Shown here one piece after another: positions 177 through 9,551 of a DNA stretch of 12,134 nt; the first letter of the stretch is position 1, and every line of letters begins with the position of its first letter. The notes beneath the pieces are model-generated. The model searched no databases and was not told the DNA's origin. It saw only the letters and a program-made list of their open reading frames with translations. A program made the position numbers and the translations under genes. The stretch comes from Candidatus Thorarchaeota archaeon (lineage in GTDB: Archaea > Asgardarchaeota > Thorarchaeia > Thorarchaeales > Thorarchaeaceae). The DNA is taken from contig JBHLQM010000038.1 of NCBI GenBank assembly GCA_048884785.1, forward strand, positions 21,037 through 33,170. The letters run 5' to 3'.

Positions 177-794
177 TTAGTCAGTTTTCGCAGGTGCCAT
201 ATATCGCATCTTGAGGACATGATACAATTTGGCAAAGATTGGTGTCAGGAAGAGGATGGTAGGGATTCCTGTAGTTAGCAATGGTAGTATAGCAAATCCA
301 ATCCCAGCCAGCATCGAATAGCCTTCAACAGTAATTCCGATTACAAAGAGAAGCAGACCTGTGATGAGAAAGCCAATTACTGAGAGGGAAGAGAGCTTGG
401 CTAAAGATCTGCCGCTCTCGAAATCGTATCTCTTCAACCCTGCAATGAGTCCTAGTACTCCATACGCAACTGCGGGTAATGTCATTGTTACTAGAACATT
501 GTAGGCAACTAGTCCGTACAGGACTACTCCAAAGTATCCAGCAATGAAACCTGCAAATGATCCTCGAATTCCACCTGTGGCCGCAATAATCGCGACTCCA
601 GGTAGAAGTCCGAATTTCAGTATGCCCACCATAGTGAAGGGCATTGGAATAAGCGAAATACCAACGTAAAGAACCGCACCAATAGCTCCAAAGAGTATGG
701 TCCTGAGAATCATATTCCTATTTTGAAGGCTGAATCTCCGCACTTGAGAGGAGGGAGTGTCTGTTTGGGCTGTTTCCATTGTAACTTCGTTCAT
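177..794 (-). CDS. ECF-transporter S-component-like membrane protein (about 5-6 TM)
   Basis: 205 aa, hydrophobic and Gly/Ala-rich. N-terminal helix 'ILFGAIGAVLYVGISLIPMP' carries an AxxxA motif, followed by 'PGVAIIAATGGIRGSFAGFIAGYFG', matching the S-component (DUF1393/RibU-like) pattern. RBS GAGGTG (803-808) overlaps the upstream gene's TGA. Confidence 0.65.
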   Translation of the reverse strand: MNEVTMETAQTDTPSSQVRRFSLQNRNMILRTILFGAIGAVLYVGISLIPMPFTMVGILKFGLLPGVAIIAATGGIRGSFAGFIAGYFGVVLYGLVAYNVLVTMTLPAVAYGVLGLIAGLKRYDFESGRSLAKLSSLSVIGFLITGLLLFVIGITVEGYSMLAGIGFAILPLLTTGIPTILFLTPIFAKLYHVLKMRYMAPAKTD

Positions 795-806
795 ACTTCT
801 TCCACC

Positions 807-2435
807 TCACATAATTACGAGTTGGTATGTACCGGGATTAAGAGTGAGTATGTAGTTGCTTCCTACAGCAACAAGATCACCCAGACTTATACCGGCGGCA
901 TAGGCTGTGGGAGTTTCATCAAAATTGCTGAATGTGAGAGTGGCATGTTCATCAACCTGTATATTCAGGATGAAGGCATCTTTCTCGGCATCCCACTCTG
1001 CCTGATAGACCCAGATTTTTTCGTCATCCGCTGCACTAATGTACGGATAATCCCAAAACTCAGATGGACGGGCACTGGCCATTTCTTTCACGGTGACAGG
1101 AAGTGTGCTCCATACCGAAAATCCGCCAACAACTGGGGCTAAGAAGGGCTCCAATGATGATGTGTCGTAATGCATCATTCGGCCATCTTGAGACCAGACC
1201 TTATTGTAAAGGTCCTGTAGAAAATTCAATACACGATCCCGGGTAGCATAATCGCCCCTCTGATTTGCCAAGACTGTCGTGAATACATTTGCAAGCATCC
1301 CGTTGACATCCCCAAATACTGATGGATTCCGGTACGAGCCCATCATGTACATCACGTCGTTGGAGAGGTCCTTGCCATAGATGTCGATGAAATCTGAGTA
1401 TCTGGGTATGATTTTGTCAGGGATTGTATATTCAAGAAAGGTTAACGCCCATGCTAGTCCATACCCATTCACCCTTGGGAGACCTAGCTGCCGATTGAGA
1501 GCGGGTCCAGGGTATTGTTGTGGTTGTGTTTCGGGGAAGGGGGTGAGTCCCATGGGCTCTTGGACAAAGTAGCCATCAATGAATAGTCCATGCTCATCTG
1601 TCATTTCAGATTCAATAAAATCTAGACCAAAATCCCAAAGACCTGTTTCCATCCAACTTTCGTTGTACAAATTATCATACAGCTCAGTTGTAAAGATAGG
1701 GATGCTATTACACTGAGCGAATACAATATACGGCTCACAGGGAATGAGTCCTGCACCCCATATTCCACCCTCTTTTGGATTTGAAAATCCATCTGTCGTC
1801 AGTGAGTTGTTCCAGTCTTCAATGAACCAAGTGACCTCATCGGTCATTTCGCTGGTGTGGAAGTTTCTCTCATAGAGAAGCATCATCAATGCATAATGGC
1901 CTGTCCACATGATATTGGCTGGCCCACGAAAGCCACCAGTATAGAGATCGTCTTCGTTTGGATGGGTTGCGTTTGGATAGTAGTAGTCACGAAACTGGTA
2001 GTTATCCCACTCAATGTGCTCAATGGAATCATTACCATATTCAGCATTAGTTGTATTCATGCTCTTGATAAGAGAGTAGACAAAATTCCGGTACTGTTCA
2101 GTACGATAGCCTGATGTTACTTCAAACATCGATTCAAACACATAACTCGTGAATGCTAACATGTAATGTAGAGTCCCTCGGTACCTATTGGCGTTCCACC
2201 CTTCAAAATCATTGTAGGAACTTCCTACAACGAAGTCATTGAAATAGTTGAAAATGGCTAGTTGTTCCTTCGTCAAAGACTTGTAGTCAGAGAAATCATA
2301 GATGACTCCGTTGATTACTTGCCTGCCAGAAGGTGCAGTGGCTCCAGGCAAATTACTGAATGTCATACCACCAAGGATGATGGCAAATGTCAGCGATACT
2401 AGAATGAATTTGTTGGCTTTTGCGGAAATTCCCAT
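807..2435 (-). CDS. Exported linalool dehydratase/isomerase (LinD/Ldi)-family protein with C-terminal beta-rich extension
   Basis: N-terminal signal/anchor (KANKFILVSLTFAIILGG). Motifs FEGW...HYMLAFTSY, NIMWTGHYALMMLLYE and IPCEPYIVFAQCNS...LYDNLY match, as recalled, Castellaniella LinD FEAW...KYSIAFYAY, NIMYKGHLNLMYGLYQ and IVCEPDNYFVQCNS...VYDRLH. Several N-x-S/T sequons (NTT, NDS, NAT, NNS, NES). Confidence 0.85.
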   Translation of the reverse strand: MGISAKANKFILVSLTFAIILGGMTFSNLPGATAPSGRQVINGVIYDFSDYKSLTKEQLAIFNYFNDFVVGSSYNDFEGWNANRYRGTLHYMLAFTSYVFESMFEVTSGYRTEQYRNFVYSLIKSMNTTNAEYGNDSIEHIEWDNYQFRDYYYPNATHPNEDDLYTGGFRGPANIMWTGHYALMMLLYERNFHTSEMTDEVTWFIEDWNNSLTTDGFSNPKEGGIWGAGLIPCEPYIVFAQCNSIPIFTTELYDNLYNESWMETGLWDFGLDFIESEMTDEHGLFIDGYFVQEPMGLTPFPETQPQQYPGPALNRQLGLPRVNGYGLAWALTFLEYTIPDKIIPRYSDFIDIYGKDLSNDVMYMMGSYRNPSVFGDVNGMLANVFTTVLANQRGDYATRDRVLNFLQDLYNKVWSQDGRMMHYDTSSLEPFLAPVVGGFSVWSTLPVTVKEMASARPSEFWDYPYISAADDEKIWVYQAEWDAEKDAFILNIQVDEHATLTFSNFDETPTAYAAGISLGDLVAVGSNYILTLNPGTYQLVIM

Positions 2436-2564
2436 GCTGAAAGACTCAACTCCGAGGAATTGACTCCGACATGACTTGCGTACCTAGTTATATAGCTTCC
2501 ATTAGGATTACCTGCAATGCAAACGAGACCATGGTCTGTGGTTAGACAGGTTCCGAATTCGGAA

Positions 2565-2581
2565 ATAAAAAGAATAAGAAG
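2565..2581 (-). terminator. U-rich tract downstream of the small membrane-protein gene (archaeal-type terminator candidate)
   Basis: The minus strand reads CTTCTTATTCTTTTTAT shortly after the TAA at 2595-2597, and is followed by the palindrome TTCCGAATTCGGAA. Confidence 0.35.
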
Positions 2582-2594
2582 AGGGGCAAGTTCG

Positions 2595-2759
2595 TTACAA
2601 CAATACAATCGCTGCAACGAAGCTCACAGCATAAACAAGATGAATCAGTATGAGGGTCATTCTTGTAAGCTGGATACCTCTTCTTCGGACTAATTCGCCG
2701 CCAAGCCAGCACGTAATAATCGATGCAAGAAATAGGGCTCCAATCATTGAAATATCCAT
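2595..2759 (-). CDS. Small 54-aa two-TM membrane protein (not in the ORF track)
   Basis: ATG at 2759-2757 to TAA at 2597-2595: MDISMIGALFLASIITCWLGGELVRRRGIQLTRMTLILIHLVYAVSFVAAIVLL*. GGAGG RBS at 2772-2768, 8 nt upstream. Starts 3 nt after the upstream stop. Two hydrophobic helices, and it shares a CWL-x20-HxxY motif with the upstream gene. Confidence 0.75.
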   Translation of the reverse strand: MDISMIGALFLASIITCWLGGELVRRRGIQLTRMTLILIHLVYAVSFVAAIVLL

Positions 2760-2762
2760 AGA

Positions 2763-3026
2763 TTAGCCCTCCCATGCTTCGATTGCCTTAATGCGACGGG
2801 CCGAGCGGTAGTATACTACAAATAGTATCCCTAGGTATGAAACGTGAAATACCGCCCATACATAGTCAGACACCGATTGCACAAAATCCGGCAATGCCGC
2901 TGGAACCAGCCAACAGAGAAACAGCGAGAAAAGCAGCACAAGGACTAGCTTTTTCCTAATGCTTCGTCCATTGTAATGGTCCGGAACGACCGGAATTGAT
3001 TTAGAAAGACTTTGATTTTCCATCAT
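2763..3026 (-). CDS. Small 87-aa two-TM membrane protein
   Basis: Two hydrophobic helices (LVLVLLFSLFLCWLVPAAL; VWAVFHVSYLGILFVVYY) flanked by basic residues (RSIRKK; RSARRIK). First gene of the cluster divergent from the Lrp regulator. Confidence 0.75.
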   Translation of the reverse strand: MMENQSLSKSIPVVPDHYNGRSIRKKLVLVLLFSLFLCWLVPAALPDFVQSVSDYVWAVFHVSYLGILFVVYYRSARRIKAIEAWEG

Positions 3027-3166
3027 TGTTGTTCAATATATTGTCATGAAGCAAACTACTAGAAACCTAGGCAAGCAAAGGCTTCAGAAATCGAGCATAT
3101 TTTCAAGTAAAAGGTACCATTTTTGAGGAGGAAAACTCAAAGTTGATAGCTAATAGGTGAAAACAT

Positions 3167-4099
3167 ATGGACTCCTTCGATCGGATTCTCTTGGCTGAAT
3201 TGGCTGCTAACTGCCGTGTGTCCTTCACTGACTTGGCAGAGAAATACAGTTTTTCTGTTAATACAATCAAGAAGAAGGTAGAAGACCTGGTTCAAGAAGG
3301 TGTGATTCATGCCTTTGATGTTCAAATTTCGCTTCGGTCAGTCGGAGCCAGTTTCGCGGTGACCATGATAGAATTAAATTCCGATTGGTCTGGAGACCGT
3401 CTGAAAGAACTCGGAAAACATCCGAATATCTACAGTATTGCGTCAGGAATACGGTCAGAAGCATTGGTCCTAGTAATCTATCGAAGCAATCAGGAGCTCA
3501 CTGAAGTTGTTGACTTCCTCCAGTCTACTCCAGGAGTCTCGAAGACCGAAACAGTCCCTTTGCTGTATCCCCTTTCAGCAGGTGAAATGCCTCCATCGAA
3601 GGGTCTTGAGGATCTAAAGAGAATTGACTGGATGATCTTGCAGAAATTGAAATGGAATGGACGAATGCAACTTGGAGAATTGGCCAACGTTGTTGGAGCC
3701 TCACCTGCCAGCGTACGAAAACGCCTTCAGTTTATGCTGAAAAATGGTCTAATCAATCAGACTATTCTTGTCAATCCGAGCTTGACCAAAGGATTGGTAG
3801 TAATGTATGCTCTCAGTATAGAAGAGTTATCTTCCGAGATTCAGCATCGTCTAGATTTGCTACTTGCAGAAACGTTTCCAGACAATTATTGGTTGAGTTG
3901 GAGAGTTGCAGACCGATCGCTTTTACTCTTGACATTTCAGGTTCAGAGCACAAAGGATGCTCTTGAAATCAGAGATAGATTATTGGAACTTATACCAGAT
4001 TCATCCATAGCAAAACAGCTCCTGGTTGGTGTGTGGGAGTATTTTCCGGACTTCCGAGATGATTTGATTGCTTCCCGTTTAGAATCATACAAGAAATGA
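3167..4099 (+). CDS. Tandem (double HTH + RAM-like) Lrp/AsnC-family transcriptional regulator
   Basis: Two AsnC-type wHTH units (MDSFDRILLAELAANCRVSFTDLAEKYSFSVNTIKKKVEDLVQEGVI; LKRIDWMILQKLKWNGRMQLGELANVVGASPASVRKRLQFMLKNGLI), each followed by a beta-alpha-beta ligand-binding-like domain. RBS AGGTGA upstream. Confidence 0.9.
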   Translation: MDSFDRILLAELAANCRVSFTDLAEKYSFSVNTIKKKVEDLVQEGVIHAFDVQISLRSVGASFAVTMIELNSDWSGDRLKELGKHPNIYSIASGIRSEALVLVIYRSNQELTEVVDFLQSTPGVSKTETVPLLYPLSAGEMPPSKGLEDLKRIDWMILQKLKWNGRMQLGELANVVGASPASVRKRLQFMLKNGLINQTILVNPSLTKGLVVMYALSIEELSSEIQHRLDLLLAETFPDNYWLSWRVADRSLLLLTFQVQSTKDALEIRDRLLELIPDSSIAKQLLVGVWEYFPDFRDDLIASRLESYKK

Positions 4100-5938: not shown

Positions 5939-6844
5939 GTGAAATCAGATACACATGAAAATCGGTTCACCATTATCACAGATCCAACTGATGATGAAGT
6001 GCAGAAGTTCCAGAGTGGCTTCGAAGAGGACAATATGCGCAGGACAAATCGTGAATACAATTGTCCTGAAGAATGGCTTAGTCTTATTCTTAGAGATCAT
6101 GATGGAAATATTGTTGGAGGCATAATGACCAGCACTCTGTTTTGGGTTCAGTACCTTGAGGTGCTGTGGGTGGACGAAAGGTATCGAGGGCTTGGCTATG
6201 GAAAGGATCTCATCCTAGAGGCAGAACGGATGGCGAAGGAGAACGGATGCCGAGCATCCCACACCTACACCTTCTCATGGCAAGGAGGTGATTTCTACCA
6301 GGCAGTGGGATATGACCTCATAGCAACTTATGATGGATTTGTAGATGGAGTTAAAGAATACATTCTGATGAAGTCCTTAGACTCCATTAAAGAGGTTCCA
6401 TCTCAAGATACAGACCCCACTCGATTCACAATCTCTAAGGACTCAAGTGAGGAATCACAGCTCGTTGTACGTAGAGGGCTCGGGAGAGATTTCGAGGATA
6501 ATGTCAGCGAGCTGCTAAAGAGATATCCGCATATCAAAATCCAGTTGATTATCAAGAATGAAAAAGAACAAGTGATTGGAGGACTGTGCGGTTATTCACT
6601 GCTTAGGACTGTGAATATCGGAGAATACTGGGTTGATGAGAGGTATCGTGGACAAGGCTATGGGAAAGATCTCTTGATGCTTGCTGAGAAAATTGCCAAA
6701 GAGAATGATTGTATTGCTTTTCAGACGCACTGTTTTTCGTTTCAGGAGATTAACTTCATGAAAAATCAAGGCTTCGCGGTATATGGGCTGTCGGATGCAT
6801 ATCCCAGAGATGTGAAGGAGTATTATCTTATCAAGAGATTATAG
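5939..6844 (+). CDS. Tandem two-domain GNAT N-acetyltransferase
   Basis: Two acetyl-CoA-binding motif A copies: LWVDERYRGLGYGKDLILEAE and YWVDERYRGQGYGKDLLMLAE. Similar C-termini (VKEYILMKSL / VKEYYLIKRL). GTG start. Confidence 0.9.
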   Translation: MKSDTHENRFTIITDPTDDEVQKFQSGFEEDNMRRTNREYNCPEEWLSLILRDHDGNIVGGIMTSTLFWVQYLEVLWVDERYRGLGYGKDLILEAERMAKENGCRASHTYTFSWQGGDFYQAVGYDLIATYDGFVDGVKEYILMKSLDSIKEVPSQDTDPTRFTISKDSSEESQLVVRRGLGRDFEDNVSELLKRYPHIKIQLIIKNEKEQVIGGLCGYSLLRTVNIGEYWVDERYRGQGYGKDLLMLAEKIAKENDCIAFQTHCFSFQEINFMKNQGFAVYGLSDAYPRDVKEYYLIKRL

Positions 6845-6898: not shown

Positions 6899-7852
6899 TC
6901 AAATGAATTCGATATTCTTTGTAGCGTTCTCAACATATCTCCTCTTTTCGCCATACTGTCTTGATGACTTTATCAGAAATAATCCCACAATGAAGAGCAA
7001 TGGAAACGGAAGAAACATCATGAAGAAGAGAAAAAGAAACATTGAAAACGCTAATCCTGACACAAGACTAACTATCCCTATTAGAATGGTTGTGGTTTCT
7101 TTTGCCAAGCCCCTTGTGTACATCCAGACTTTATAGGCAAAAACAAAACCCGGGATATAGATAATTGAAAAAAATATTAGAAACCCTACGGGATATATTA
7201 GAAACCAGAACTCGAAGTCTAAGCCATAAGACAAATAGAACATCCAAGTTGGTGCGTGTAAGGAAAAGGTTGACCAAGAAAATGCGATGTTTTGAGGAGA
7301 AAACAGAGCTAGATAGAGCATAATCAGTCCTGTTCGACTTGATTCGTTGCTAGTGCGTACTTGAGATTTCGATTCTTGGTACCAAATATCAGCTCTTTCA
7401 TACTCTTTACGCTCAAGTTCCCATCTAACATAAGGAATCAAAACAAAGGCCATGAAAACTGGATAAGTCACTGAAATGCCAGTATAAACGGCCATAGTGA
7501 GTATTCCAAAAGCTGGAAAAAACACTATTGCAGCAATGTGGAGAAAGAATATCAACAAGGATGCTACGATTGCCTTATCAGATAGTGGAGTATAATGTGG
7601 TGTCTGATCCTTGAAATACAGGAATACAAAGCAAGGAAGACTTGTCAAAACAAAAAGAATGACTAGGGGAAGGGATGGCACCACAATTAAACCGGAATGT
7701 GGTTCGTAGTTAGAGAACGACCAGAGAATTGATTCTAACCCCCTGACCCCTGATTCAGGAGAAATGTCAAGGAAGAAGCTGTATGGAATTATCATCAGTG
7801 CGATATACAGAAGTATTCTCTTAATCCACCGCCTTATTACTCCATCCTCCAC
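6899..7852 (-). CDS. Hypothetical polytopic membrane protein with internal two-fold repeat
   Basis: About 7-8 hydrophobic segments in two blocks separated by a hydrophilic linker (ELERKEYERAD...SSRTG). Start codon uncertain: the GTG overlaps the upstream gene by 32 nt. Confidence 0.75.
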   Translation of the reverse strand: MEDGVIRRWIKRILLYIALMIIPYSFFLDISPESGVRGLESILWSFSNYEPHSGLIVVPSLPLVILFVLTSLPCFVFLYFKDQTPHYTPLSDKAIVASLLIFFLHIAAIVFFPAFGILTMAVYTGISVTYPVFMAFVLIPYVRWELERKEYERADIWYQESKSQVRTSNESSRTGLIMLYLALFSPQNIAFSWSTFSLHAPTWMFYLSYGLDFEFWFLIYPVGFLIFFSIIYIPGFVFAYKVWMYTRGLAKETTTILIGIVSLVSGLAFSMFLFLFFMMFLPFPLLFIVGLFLIKSSRQYGEKRRYVENATKNIEFI

Positions 7853-9551
7853 AGGTTTTCCCTCTTTCTCGAATAGTCATCATTCTGATTCTCCTTTTGA
7901 GCAGGATAGAGATTGTTATGACTGATACTCCCACTAGAGCACAGATAATGACTATATGTATTTGAAAAGGCGTGACACTACCGTTTGGGAGAATACTTGG
8001 ATAGTGGTCTATGCTAGTCCATTCAATCTCATATACTCCTATTCCATAGTAATCGCTCCAACTGTTCCCAACGCTTGAACCGTCATCCCAAGAGTTAAAG
8101 CGGCCATAATCAATGGCGTTTGAATACCCATTCCAACCTATGCTATTGTTGTAGATTCGATTGTATGCAGCAAACCCTTCGTAATATCCATACCATGGAT
8201 ATTCAATAAGAACACCTGTGGAATTGTTATACGTGATCGTGTTATTGTATACGAAGCAGTGTGACCCAAAGATATTGATCCCAACATAGTTTCGTGTTAT
8301 AGTGTTACCAATTGAAGTCGAATTATCAGAAAGGTAGAGCCCTGTCCAAAGGTTCCCTCTGATAATAGAACGAATTACAGTTTCGCTGCTGGAATTATAA
8401 GTGGGATTTATGCCATTGTGCAGATTATCTTCAATGACACAATCCACAGCTGTGAAGAATGGAGAGAATGCTAGAGATACTCCGTTGCCCGAGCAACTAA
8501 CGACATGGCACGCTCGAAGAGTAATACCGGTGGAGTCCTCAGCATAGACTCCGTTGTAATGACAATGGGTTATGAAGCAATTTTCAAGGGTGATATTAGT
8601 TGAGTCCTGAATATGTACTCCGCCCCAATAGCACTCAGAAACATTGGAGCTTTCAACTGTACAATTGTTACTATGTATAATTTGAATGCCTGTGGAGCAG
8701 TTCTGAAAATCCCCACCACTGATGAGTGTGTCATTGCAGCTCAGAAGGATAGCCTGACCGTACTGAGCAAGGTTCACTTCCGCACTTGATAGGCTTTGAA
8801 AGAAACCAATATCCTTTCCATTTACGAGGTTATTTGTGATATTGTATGGCAGCCTCACAAGCTCTTGGTATGAATAGAAGAGGCTTTGCGGGTAATTCCA
8901 GAACTGCATCTCTAGTCCGCAGTCCGTGAATTCGTTCCCGATAACTGTGACATAAGCTGAAGAATCCAAAATAAGGCCAAGATTATCATTGATGAAGTGA
9001 TTATCCGAAATGATTGTGTTGTTGCATATCTCTAGAGTCAGACCAGTATCACTAGATAGGAATTCGTTCTCACTAACTATGGAATCCCTACAATCACCCA
9101 TCCACAGGGCTTCGGGGAGCTCGGAGCTACTGAACACGTTTTCATTAACAATTACGTTCTCTGAGCTAAGAATATATAACGCAGCAGTTGATGCAAAGCT
9201 ACATTCTTCTATAACCCCATTTGATATCCACTCACAAGCGAGATTTTCAAACGATATGTTGCAGTATCTGATGACGAAGTACGCTGAAGTATTGTGAATG
9301 TATAGACCAAGGTCGATATCCTGATTCTCCAATAGATATGGACTAAATATTGAGCCATTTCCTGAGAAGCCGTACAGCGTGAAGTCGCTATTGTCGCTGA
9401 TTTCAATAGGTGTATCATATCCGTTCCTGTGAACGGATGCTGTTGTCGCCAAAGCGGGCAACTCGAAATAATAAGCCATGGAAGGCAATCCTGGTTGTGC
9501 AAGTCCCAGTAGAACCATGTTCACGAGAAGGAATACGAAAAATCGCTTCAA
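7821..9551 (-). CDS. Secreted right-handed parallel beta-helix (NosD/pectin-lyase-like) surface protein with C-terminal TM anchor
   Basis: Signal peptide MKRFFVFLLVNMVLLGLA; N-cap PIEISDNSDF..GFSGNGS..PYLLEN; about 22-23-aa Asn/Cys-rich repeats; C-cap WDDGSSVGNSWSDY...DHYP; TM followed by KRRIR; many N-glycosylation sequons. TTG start. Confidence 0.88.
   Translation of the reverse strand: MKRFFVFLLVNMVLLGLAQPGLPSMAYYFELPALATTASVHRNGYDTPIEISDNSDFTLYGFSGNGSIFSPYLLENQDIDLGLYIHNTSAYFVIRYCNISFENLACEWISNGVIEECSFASTAALYILSSENVIVNENVFSSSELPEALWMGDCRDSIVSENEFLSSDTGLTLEICNNTIISDNHFINDNLGLILDSSAYVTVIGNEFTDCGLEMQFWNYPQSLFYSYQELVRLPYNITNNLVNGKDIGFFQSLSSAEVNLAQYGQAILLSCNDTLISGGDFQNCSTGIQIIHSNNCTVESSNVSECYWGGVHIQDSTNITLENCFITHCHYNGVYAEDSTGITLRACHVVSCSGNGVSLAFSPFFTAVDCVIEDNLHNGINPTYNSSSETVIRSIIRGNLWTGLYLSDNSTSIGNTITRNYVGINIFGSHCFVYNNTITYNNSTGVLIEYPWYGYYEGFAAYNRIYNNSIGWNGYSNAIDYGRFNSWDDGSSVGNSWSDYYGIGVYEIEWTSIDHYPSILPNGSVTPFQIHIVIICALVGVSVITISILLKRRIRMMTIRERGKTCGGWSNKAVD

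Follow-up and report, generated by a model that had tools for sequence, protein, structure and literature searches.

We found that a 12,134-nt stretch of a Candidatus Thorarchaeota archaeon genome (the window) carries two adjacent genes on its minus strand, gene A (2763..3026, 87 aa) and gene B (2595..2759, 54 aa), whose products make up a new family. It follows a known design, the pair of opposite-facing membrane paralogues, on a smaller scale, with two helices per subunit versus three to six in the examples that we found. Judged from the homologous loci, A and B are a two-gene unit that faces its regulator gene across a conserved DNA motif. The architecture of A/B is much more secure than its function.

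The first-pass annotation had pointed to these two open reading frames, and both are present where it placed them. It had also described B as hidden and unannotated, which turned out to be wrong because B is already called as a 54-aa gene in the NCBI and Logan records of the source organism, although the gene caller missed it at the homologous locus L033. In the window, A and B share a reading frame and are separated by TAA and a single further codon, and their pairwise similarity is not significant, so that they might be taken for one 143-aa gene with a stop, for a read-through product, or for hydrophobic reading frames that resemble each other by chance. We regard this as highly improbable. 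Five other assemblies have the stop between A and B as well, the A-B gap across loci varies from −1 to 12 nt, one overlap of 65 nt apart, and occurs in each of the three frames, and a purine-rich GGAG-type ribosome site precedes B in nearly all loci; these observations refute read-through or an assembly error. A direct fusion would in addition join the predicted C-in end of A to the N-out start of B, and a chance likeness is contradicted by the strong homology of the two profiles described below. In the window, the ribosome site of B is a Shine-Dalgarno-like GGGAGGG (2767..2773, minus strand) inside the end of gene A, suggesting translational coupling. The variable gap in three frames and the ribosome site of B itself mark A and B as two real, separate and coupled genes and not as a broken or read-through one.

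The coding sequences point in the same direction. In the homologue alignments, 170 of the 313 changes in A and 104 of the 179 changes in B are at third codon positions, and synonymous codons are used at the invariant residues of both, indicating that A and B are under selection as proteins. The length of A ranges from 79 to 109 aa across homologues, and B is 54 aa long in 20 of 21. A T-rich tract directly past the B stop (2563..2582, minus strand) is the probable end of the A-B transcript; many loci show such T-tracts past B, frequently preceded by a stem-loop, as judged by eye and without control scoring. Both window proteins contain two hydrophobic helices, in agreement with the two transmembrane helices that had been assigned to each, and AlphaFold2 models them as hairpins. 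The model of B contains helices H3-27 and H33-53 (mean pLDDT 83.6), and the model of A contains H20-44, H46-51 and H54-86 (pLDDT 76.8), the hairpin of A being preceded by an N-terminal tail that is predicted to be cytoplasmic.

The relationship between A and B rests on their homologues since the window pair itself is not beyond chance overall. BLASTP gives no alignment of window A with window B, and their 7/54 identities correspond to a shuffle p of 0.06-0.08; four rare-residue matches between them have p values of 5e-5 to 2e-4, with a statistic that was picked after the matches had been seen. At the profile level, hhalign aligned A with B at 98.1% and E 1e-13 over 49 ungapped columns, while an unrelated four-transmembrane (4-TM) family, taken through the same test against A/B as a control, reached 0.2-1.0%. 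The B profile, built without A, also matched the adjacent A in 8 genomes (E 2e-10 to 1e-4) and otherwise gave one spurious match in the genomes searched. By these profile comparisons A and B are homologous, so that the paralogy proposed from the window alone is upheld. B forms one clade apart from A in the tree (UFBoot 79), and the core identity averages 26% between A and B of the same locus, which fits one old duplication.

We scored 40 proteins (19 A and 21 B) for the shared motif and for charge. The spacing between Cys and His is exactly 23 without gaps in 40/40, Ser is found at four residues before Cys in 39/40, and Tyr at three residues after His in 37/40. Trp directly follows Cys in 23/40. 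Of the CWL-x20-HxxY motif in the first-pass annotation, Cys, His and largely Tyr were therefore confirmed with their spacing (His 23 and Tyr 26 residues after Cys), but Trp and Leu are not conserved; in these alignments the signature is S-x3-C-x22-H-x2-Y rather than CWL. On the minus strand of the window, it corresponds to S34 (2925-2927), C38 (2913-2915), H61 (2844-2846) and Y64 (2835-2837) of A, and to S13 (2721-2723), C17 (2709-2711), H40 (2640-2642) and Y43 (2631-2633) of B, with Cys and His being invariant. We also considered a lipoprotein Cys and rejected it; a lipobox, [LVI][ASTVI][GAS]C, after a signal helix occurs in just 4/19 A and 3/21 B.

The two proteins have opposite distributions of basic residues. 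Window A has 5 and 4 Lys/Arg on its flanks and none in the loop; in window B, 4 are in the loop and the flanks have none. Across the homologues, subtracting the K/R of the loop from those of the flanks gives a bias of +3 to +9 in 19/19 A and −3 to −5 in 21/21 B with no exception. These counts were made over kin and are not independent samples, but the core identity within each family averages only 32-40%. Provided that the positive-inside rule holds in Asgard archaea, A is very probably N-in/C-in and B N-out/C-out, the basic loop of B being cytoplasmic. The inverted charge bias and the opposite orientation that had been predicted for the window pair thus recur in every pair, and the K/R predictions gave no pair with the same orientation. 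The charge bias described for the window was correct. The acidic loop of A is not conserved in the homologues: the near-absence of K/R from this loop is conserved, and its acidic residues vary between 0 and 2 D/E.

The A/B family is narrow in range and patchy. Profile searches found the A-B pair in 16/86 genomes of the archaeal family, in 4 genera, and there are ~21 adjacent A-B pairs in Thorarchaeia, at which B is conserved together with A; two further A-B loci are from metagenomes. One A homologue is recorded under the name Ca. Thorarchaeota archaeon, in line with the origin of the window. A and B are always adjacent; two loci look like exceptions, but L042 is cut by a contig end and L044 has a shortened A. 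At L044:1323-1500, the second half of A directly abuts the beginning of the regulator gene, head-to-head and without an intergenic region, which is a deletion or an assembly misjoin. Single-sequence searches with A or B returned only the proteins of the source genome itself, and the relatives came via phmmer and profiles. A phmmer search against 1.8 billion 50% representatives, which was the single search that covered bacteria and other archaea, gave four A-like and two B-like proteins, and their contigs carry A beside B. A/B was not found in other Asgard families among 400 genomes searched, many of which are incomplete, and a merged A+B profile revealed no singleton, dual-topology or fused form in the 400 Asgard genomes; its weak matches were without the motif or out of frame. 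No Pfam, NCBIfam or PDB family fits A or B, no plasmid match was found for B, and our searches of the accessible literature, which is not all of it, found no paper on the family.

Wherever a locus extends far enough, the gene opposite A is of the double Lrp/AsnC type. In the window, this regulator (3167..4099, plus strand, 310 aa) is divergent from A and matches the Pfam HTH_24/HTH_AsnC type twice. The regulators of the cassettes are 40-66% identical to that of the window, compared with 22-28% for its paralogues in the source genome, and they form a clade with a support of 100; from this conservation, the regulator is a dedicated partner of the A/B cassette. The source genome (G000) contains an expansion of ~17 tandem double-Lrp/AsnC genes, and the divergent neighbours of these genes vary, including a PLP-dependent enzyme, a methyltransferase and membrane proteins.

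Between the regulator and A, we found a non-coding motif (3056..3090, minus strand) that consists of a T-tract/TG(C/A)A, a spacer and TGCC(A/T)(A/T)G-N6-(T/A)GTA. Each of the 17 distinct loci has it 46-64 nt upstream of A, and the window site scores 30.7 bits, the highest in the genome, with a matrix trained without the window. The motif is a putative operator or promoter element. A wider regulon was not established, as the next sites in the genome reach 21.6 and 20.2 bits, near the shuffled maxima of 17-19 bits obtained with a similar matrix. A second element, an 18-bp imperfect palindrome TTG(C/A)A-N8-T(G/T)CAA, is located near the regulator start at L030, L036, L043, L045 and L047; it recalls Lrp-type operators and is degenerate in the window. 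The genes downstream of B vary among loci. An aldo-keto reductase gene converges on B across a stem-loop at L030, L033 and L036-L040 and not in other groups.

The position opposite the regulator can be occupied by other membrane proteins. A regulator orthologue is present in 24/86 genomes of the family, and opposite these 24 orthologues we found A/B in 15, a CPBP/Rce1-like protease in 6, a 139-aa 4-TM protein in 2 and a contig end in 1. The same DNA motif is found upstream of A/B and of the CPBP and 4-TM genes in this slot. The slot protease is Rce1-like (PF02517, E 1.8e-7; loci L116, L117, L118, L120, L122, L123 and L133). The regulators linked to CPBP branch from within the A/B regulator clade, so the protease displaced A/B in place and kept the N-terminal peptide of A. 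Among the family genomes searched, the CPBP subfamily and A/B co-occur only in the source genome. That genome has two further CPBP copies, one (C45:24588-25493) with the DNA motif and no adjacent regulator and the other (C100:6235-7167) at a contig end. The 4-TM protein was ruled out as an A/B homologue by the profile test given above. Its family has no Pfam match and shows invariant Asp108, Asn126 and Trp128 and an acidic, predicted cytoplasmic PDDEF-type loop. It faces a sister group of the regulator in two Thorarchaeia genomes and in five of another Asgard family (L124, L125, L139-L143), and the DNA motif is recognisable at some of these loci.

These three types of protein share a short peptide. 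Pro15-Asp16 of the N-terminal tail of A (2979..2984, minus strand) is invariant in 19/19 A, all four Pro codons and both Asp codons are used for it, and its distance from the DNA motif varies from 86 to 112 nt, indicating that it is conserved as protein and not as DNA. An x-P-(D/N)-(D/E)-type peptide is found in a predicted cytoplasmic segment of each type, in the N-tail of A, the N-tail of CPBP and loop 1 of the 4-TM family, where Pro is invariant in 7/7; it is the only piece common to the 4-TM family and A. Among membrane ORFs of the source genome, PD occurs in the first 50 aa in 7% and [DEN]PD[DE] in 0.2-0.35%. The profile of the A N-tail matches the CPBP tails weakly (best E 0.023). The peptide may possibly dock on a common partner such as the regulator, a lead that stands on two independent cases.

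The remaining genes of the window include that of an exported Ldi-like protein of 542 aa (807-2435, minus strand; PF18566, E 7e-15), which has close relatives in Thorarchaeota records, and 12 nt downstream of it that of a 205-aa membrane protein (177-794, minus strand), which resembles an ECF S-component by eye, although Pfam did not confirm this. We rejected the ideas that A and B together provide a divided membrane anchor for the Ldi-like enzyme and that they belong to one module with the Ldi-like gene and the 205-aa gene. The latter two genes are not part of the A/B unit since they are kept as a pair in ~20 Thorarchaeia loci without A/B upstream, often by peroxiredoxin-like and Fur-like genes, and since A/B loci have varied downstream genes. 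At L047, an Ldi-like gene is located ~700 nt past B. The window also contains a tandem double-GNAT acetyltransferase (5939-6844, plus strand), a 317-aa membrane protein with no Pfam match (6899-7852, minus strand) and a NosD-like beta-helix surface protein (7821-9551, minus strand). A double GNAT and a nitronate monooxygenase-like gene are also near the cassette in L029 and L031.

From these data, our best reading of A/B, which we put forward tentatively, is an antiparallel A:B heteromer with a Cys/His metal site in the middle of the membrane that serves as a conduit for a small ligand. The parts of this reading differ in strength: hetero-assembly of A and B is likely, metal binding by Cys/His is slightly favoured, and transport as the job of A:B is a possibility that we would not yet call probable. 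One duplication would have produced A and B, which were then fixed in opposite orientations by their K/R distribution and would be made together from one transcript. The two may assemble into an antiparallel (A:B)n helix bundle, whose stoichiometry probably exceeds 1:1 and in which the Ser/Cys face of helix 1 and the His/Tyr face of helix 2 would point inward; in both A and B, each helix has its conserved positions on a single face. Each subunit would then provide one Cys and one His near the mid-plane, resulting in a pseudo-symmetric Cys2His2 set that could bind a transition metal. Relative to the centre of helix 1, Cys has median positions of +2 residues in A and +5 in B, and relative to the centre of helix 2, His is at −2 in A and −5 in B. 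These offsets toward the loop would place Cys/His of A just outside the mid-plane and those of B on its inner side in an antiparallel bundle. By a crude estimate, the Cys/His pairs of A and B are ~10 Å apart along the membrane normal, so that a single shared ion is unlikely unless the helices shift. The set could instead hold two metals in one site or consist of two serial sites; Ser and Tyr would lie between the pairs. As the output of the double-Lrp regulator divergent from it, the bundle would let a small ligand through the membrane, a soft metal ion being the most likely one.

Several observations speak against this reading. No metal-related gene is conserved nearby, and the downstream neighbours vary. 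Lrp/AsnC regulators usually sense amino acids, not metals. The sub-lineage in which the pair is replaced in place by the CPBP protease argues against simple metal export, and a transporter reading needs a higher oligomer, given that A:B offers only four helices. Structural comparisons were neutral: prediction of an A2B2 complex, with a score of 0.01 and a mark of 0.32, gave no verdict; a fold search with the B model gave generic hairpin matches to many unrelated helical pairs (best Z 6.9, 54-aa hairpin), and ESM Atlas feature matches stayed below 0.9.

The shared peptide offers a different view of the pair. A:B might be a membrane sensor for its own regulator, where the Cys/His site detects a metal, an oxidant or a thiol-reactive molecule and A, through its Pro-Asp peptide, retains or frees the double-Lrp protein, thereby closing a feedback loop. 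We consider this less probable than a conduit but worth keeping in mind, because a Pro-Asp-type peptide is found in all three unrelated types of membrane protein opposite this regulator group, is rare in the background in its [DEN]PD[DE] form, and is conserved as protein. Against it, the peptide of CPBP is explained by descent through displacement in place, leaving only two independent cases, and the motif is two to four residues long and was spotted post hoc, with a weak N-tail profile match on CPBP. A broader version is a modular Asgard signalling system in which a double-Lrp protein works with an interchangeable membrane partner docking by Pro-Asp, A:B being the partner with an intramembrane Cys2His2 centre; this is rather unlikely on present evidence.

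The like-for-like position of the CPBP protease also raises the possibility that Cys-His is an intramembrane catalytic dyad, making A/B a miniature protease or acyl-transfer enzyme, or a protective or immunity unit, for which CPBP is an equivalent substitute. The same regulator and DNA motif do serve the protease that replaces A/B in 6 genomes, and the two were not found together in the family genomes searched, the source genome excepted. However, gene replacement need not preserve function, opposite-facing paralogues are typical of transport and not of catalysis, two helices leave little room for a substrate, and there is no adjacent toxin or substrate gene; an enzyme is thus improbable. A redox conduit is equally improbable. 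In this case two Cys and two His would hold a [2Fe-2S] cluster or heme, as in a miniature NqrD/NqrE or RnfA/RnfE, which would agree with there being exactly four possible ligands near the mid-plane, arranged about a pseudo-twofold axis, and has a precedent in NqrD/E, inverted paralogues with an intramembrane [2Fe-2S] (PMC10643135). On the other hand, the loci have no conserved gene for an electron donor or acceptor, the distribution is patchy (16/86 genomes), and no match to Rnf-Nqr or cytochrome families was found. Export of an amino acid or a similar metabolite, by analogy with the small exporters opposite Lrp genes, would agree with the fixed divergent Lrp/AsnC-type regulator and with the antiparallel organisation, which suits transport. 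We think that it is improbable as well, and if anything marginally more so, since an invariant Cys/His would be unexpected, there is no similarity to the BrnFE, AzlCD or AlaE families, and ~16 other double-Lrp genes in the genome face varied genes, so that the label says little about the ligand. The metal-binding conduit formed by A:B remains the reading that we prefer.

Among known systems, A/B has in its sequences the features of an antiparallel paralogue pair, namely adjacent genes, homology and opposite K/R bias. The first-pass annotation had likened it to paired SMR or Fluc proteins, and this holds for the paired, opposite-facing organisation but not for membership in either family. Like the paired SMR genes of the YdgE/YdgF (MdtI/MdtJ) type (PF00893), which are read as antiparallel heterodimers (PMC3962082; bioRxiv 10.1101/133298), A and B are adjacent coupled paralogues with opposite K/R bias. 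SMR proteins, however, have 4 TM in about 100-120 aa, while A and B have 2 TM in 79-109 and 54 aa and invariant Cys/His, and no member of the A or B alignment matches PF00893 in Pfam or NCBIfam searches. Paired Fluc/CrcB proteins (PF02537) are likewise opposite-facing paralogues with a polar track across a pseudo-twofold axis, as would be the case in A:B, but they have 4 TM and a Gly-rich TM3 motif that is absent from our alignments; the CrcB model touches one of 19 A (E 0.056, 13.8 bits versus a cut-off of 103), with no Pfam match.

The UPF0016/Gdt1 and DUF606 pairs also consist of adjacent opposite-facing paralogues, and UPF0016 pairs work only when both partners are expressed (PMC4067407). 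Unlike A/B, UPF0016 has 3 TM and an E-phi-G-D-K/R-T/S motif, which is absent here, DUF606 has 5 TM per subunit, and singleton and fused forms exist, none of which we found for A/B in the 400 Asgard genomes. The paired opposite-facing paralogues of SMR, DUF606 and UPF0016 are transporters (PMC3962082, PMC4067407). In NqrD/NqrE and RnfA/RnfE, each of the inverted-topology paralogues gives ligands to a metal centre in the membrane; in NqrD/NqrE, the Cys that bind a metal cluster are supplied by the two inverted halves (PMC10643135). The Rnf-Nqr D/E proteins (PF02508) have ~200 aa and two Cys per subunit (four ligands) within a large respiratory complex, whereas A and B have one invariant Cys and one His per subunit and no rnf/nqr neighbours.

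With respect to genomic setting, A/B resembles BrnFE, AzlCD and AlaE, small bacterial exporters whose genes are placed opposite Lrp genes. A/B has no sequence similarity to them, their subunits are not opposite-facing Cys/His paralogues, and the regulator of A/B, a tandem double-Lrp, belongs to a group specific to Asgard archaea. A/B defines a protein family of Asgard archaea that has no name yet and combines a rare Cys/His signature inside the membrane with a regulator and a candidate operator, so that the system can be rebuilt in a laboratory host. Inverted repeats of transporters are thought to be derived from small opposite-facing paralogues, and a natural two-helix pair, with 54 residues in its smaller partner, would make a minimal, easily synthesised test case for the fixing of orientation after duplication and for how small an antiparallel functional unit can be. 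The paired examples that we found in the literature, UPF0016, SMR, Fluc, DUF606 and NqrD/E, have 3 to 6 helices per subunit; a two-helix pair, if true, would be the smallest antiparallel heteromer among them.
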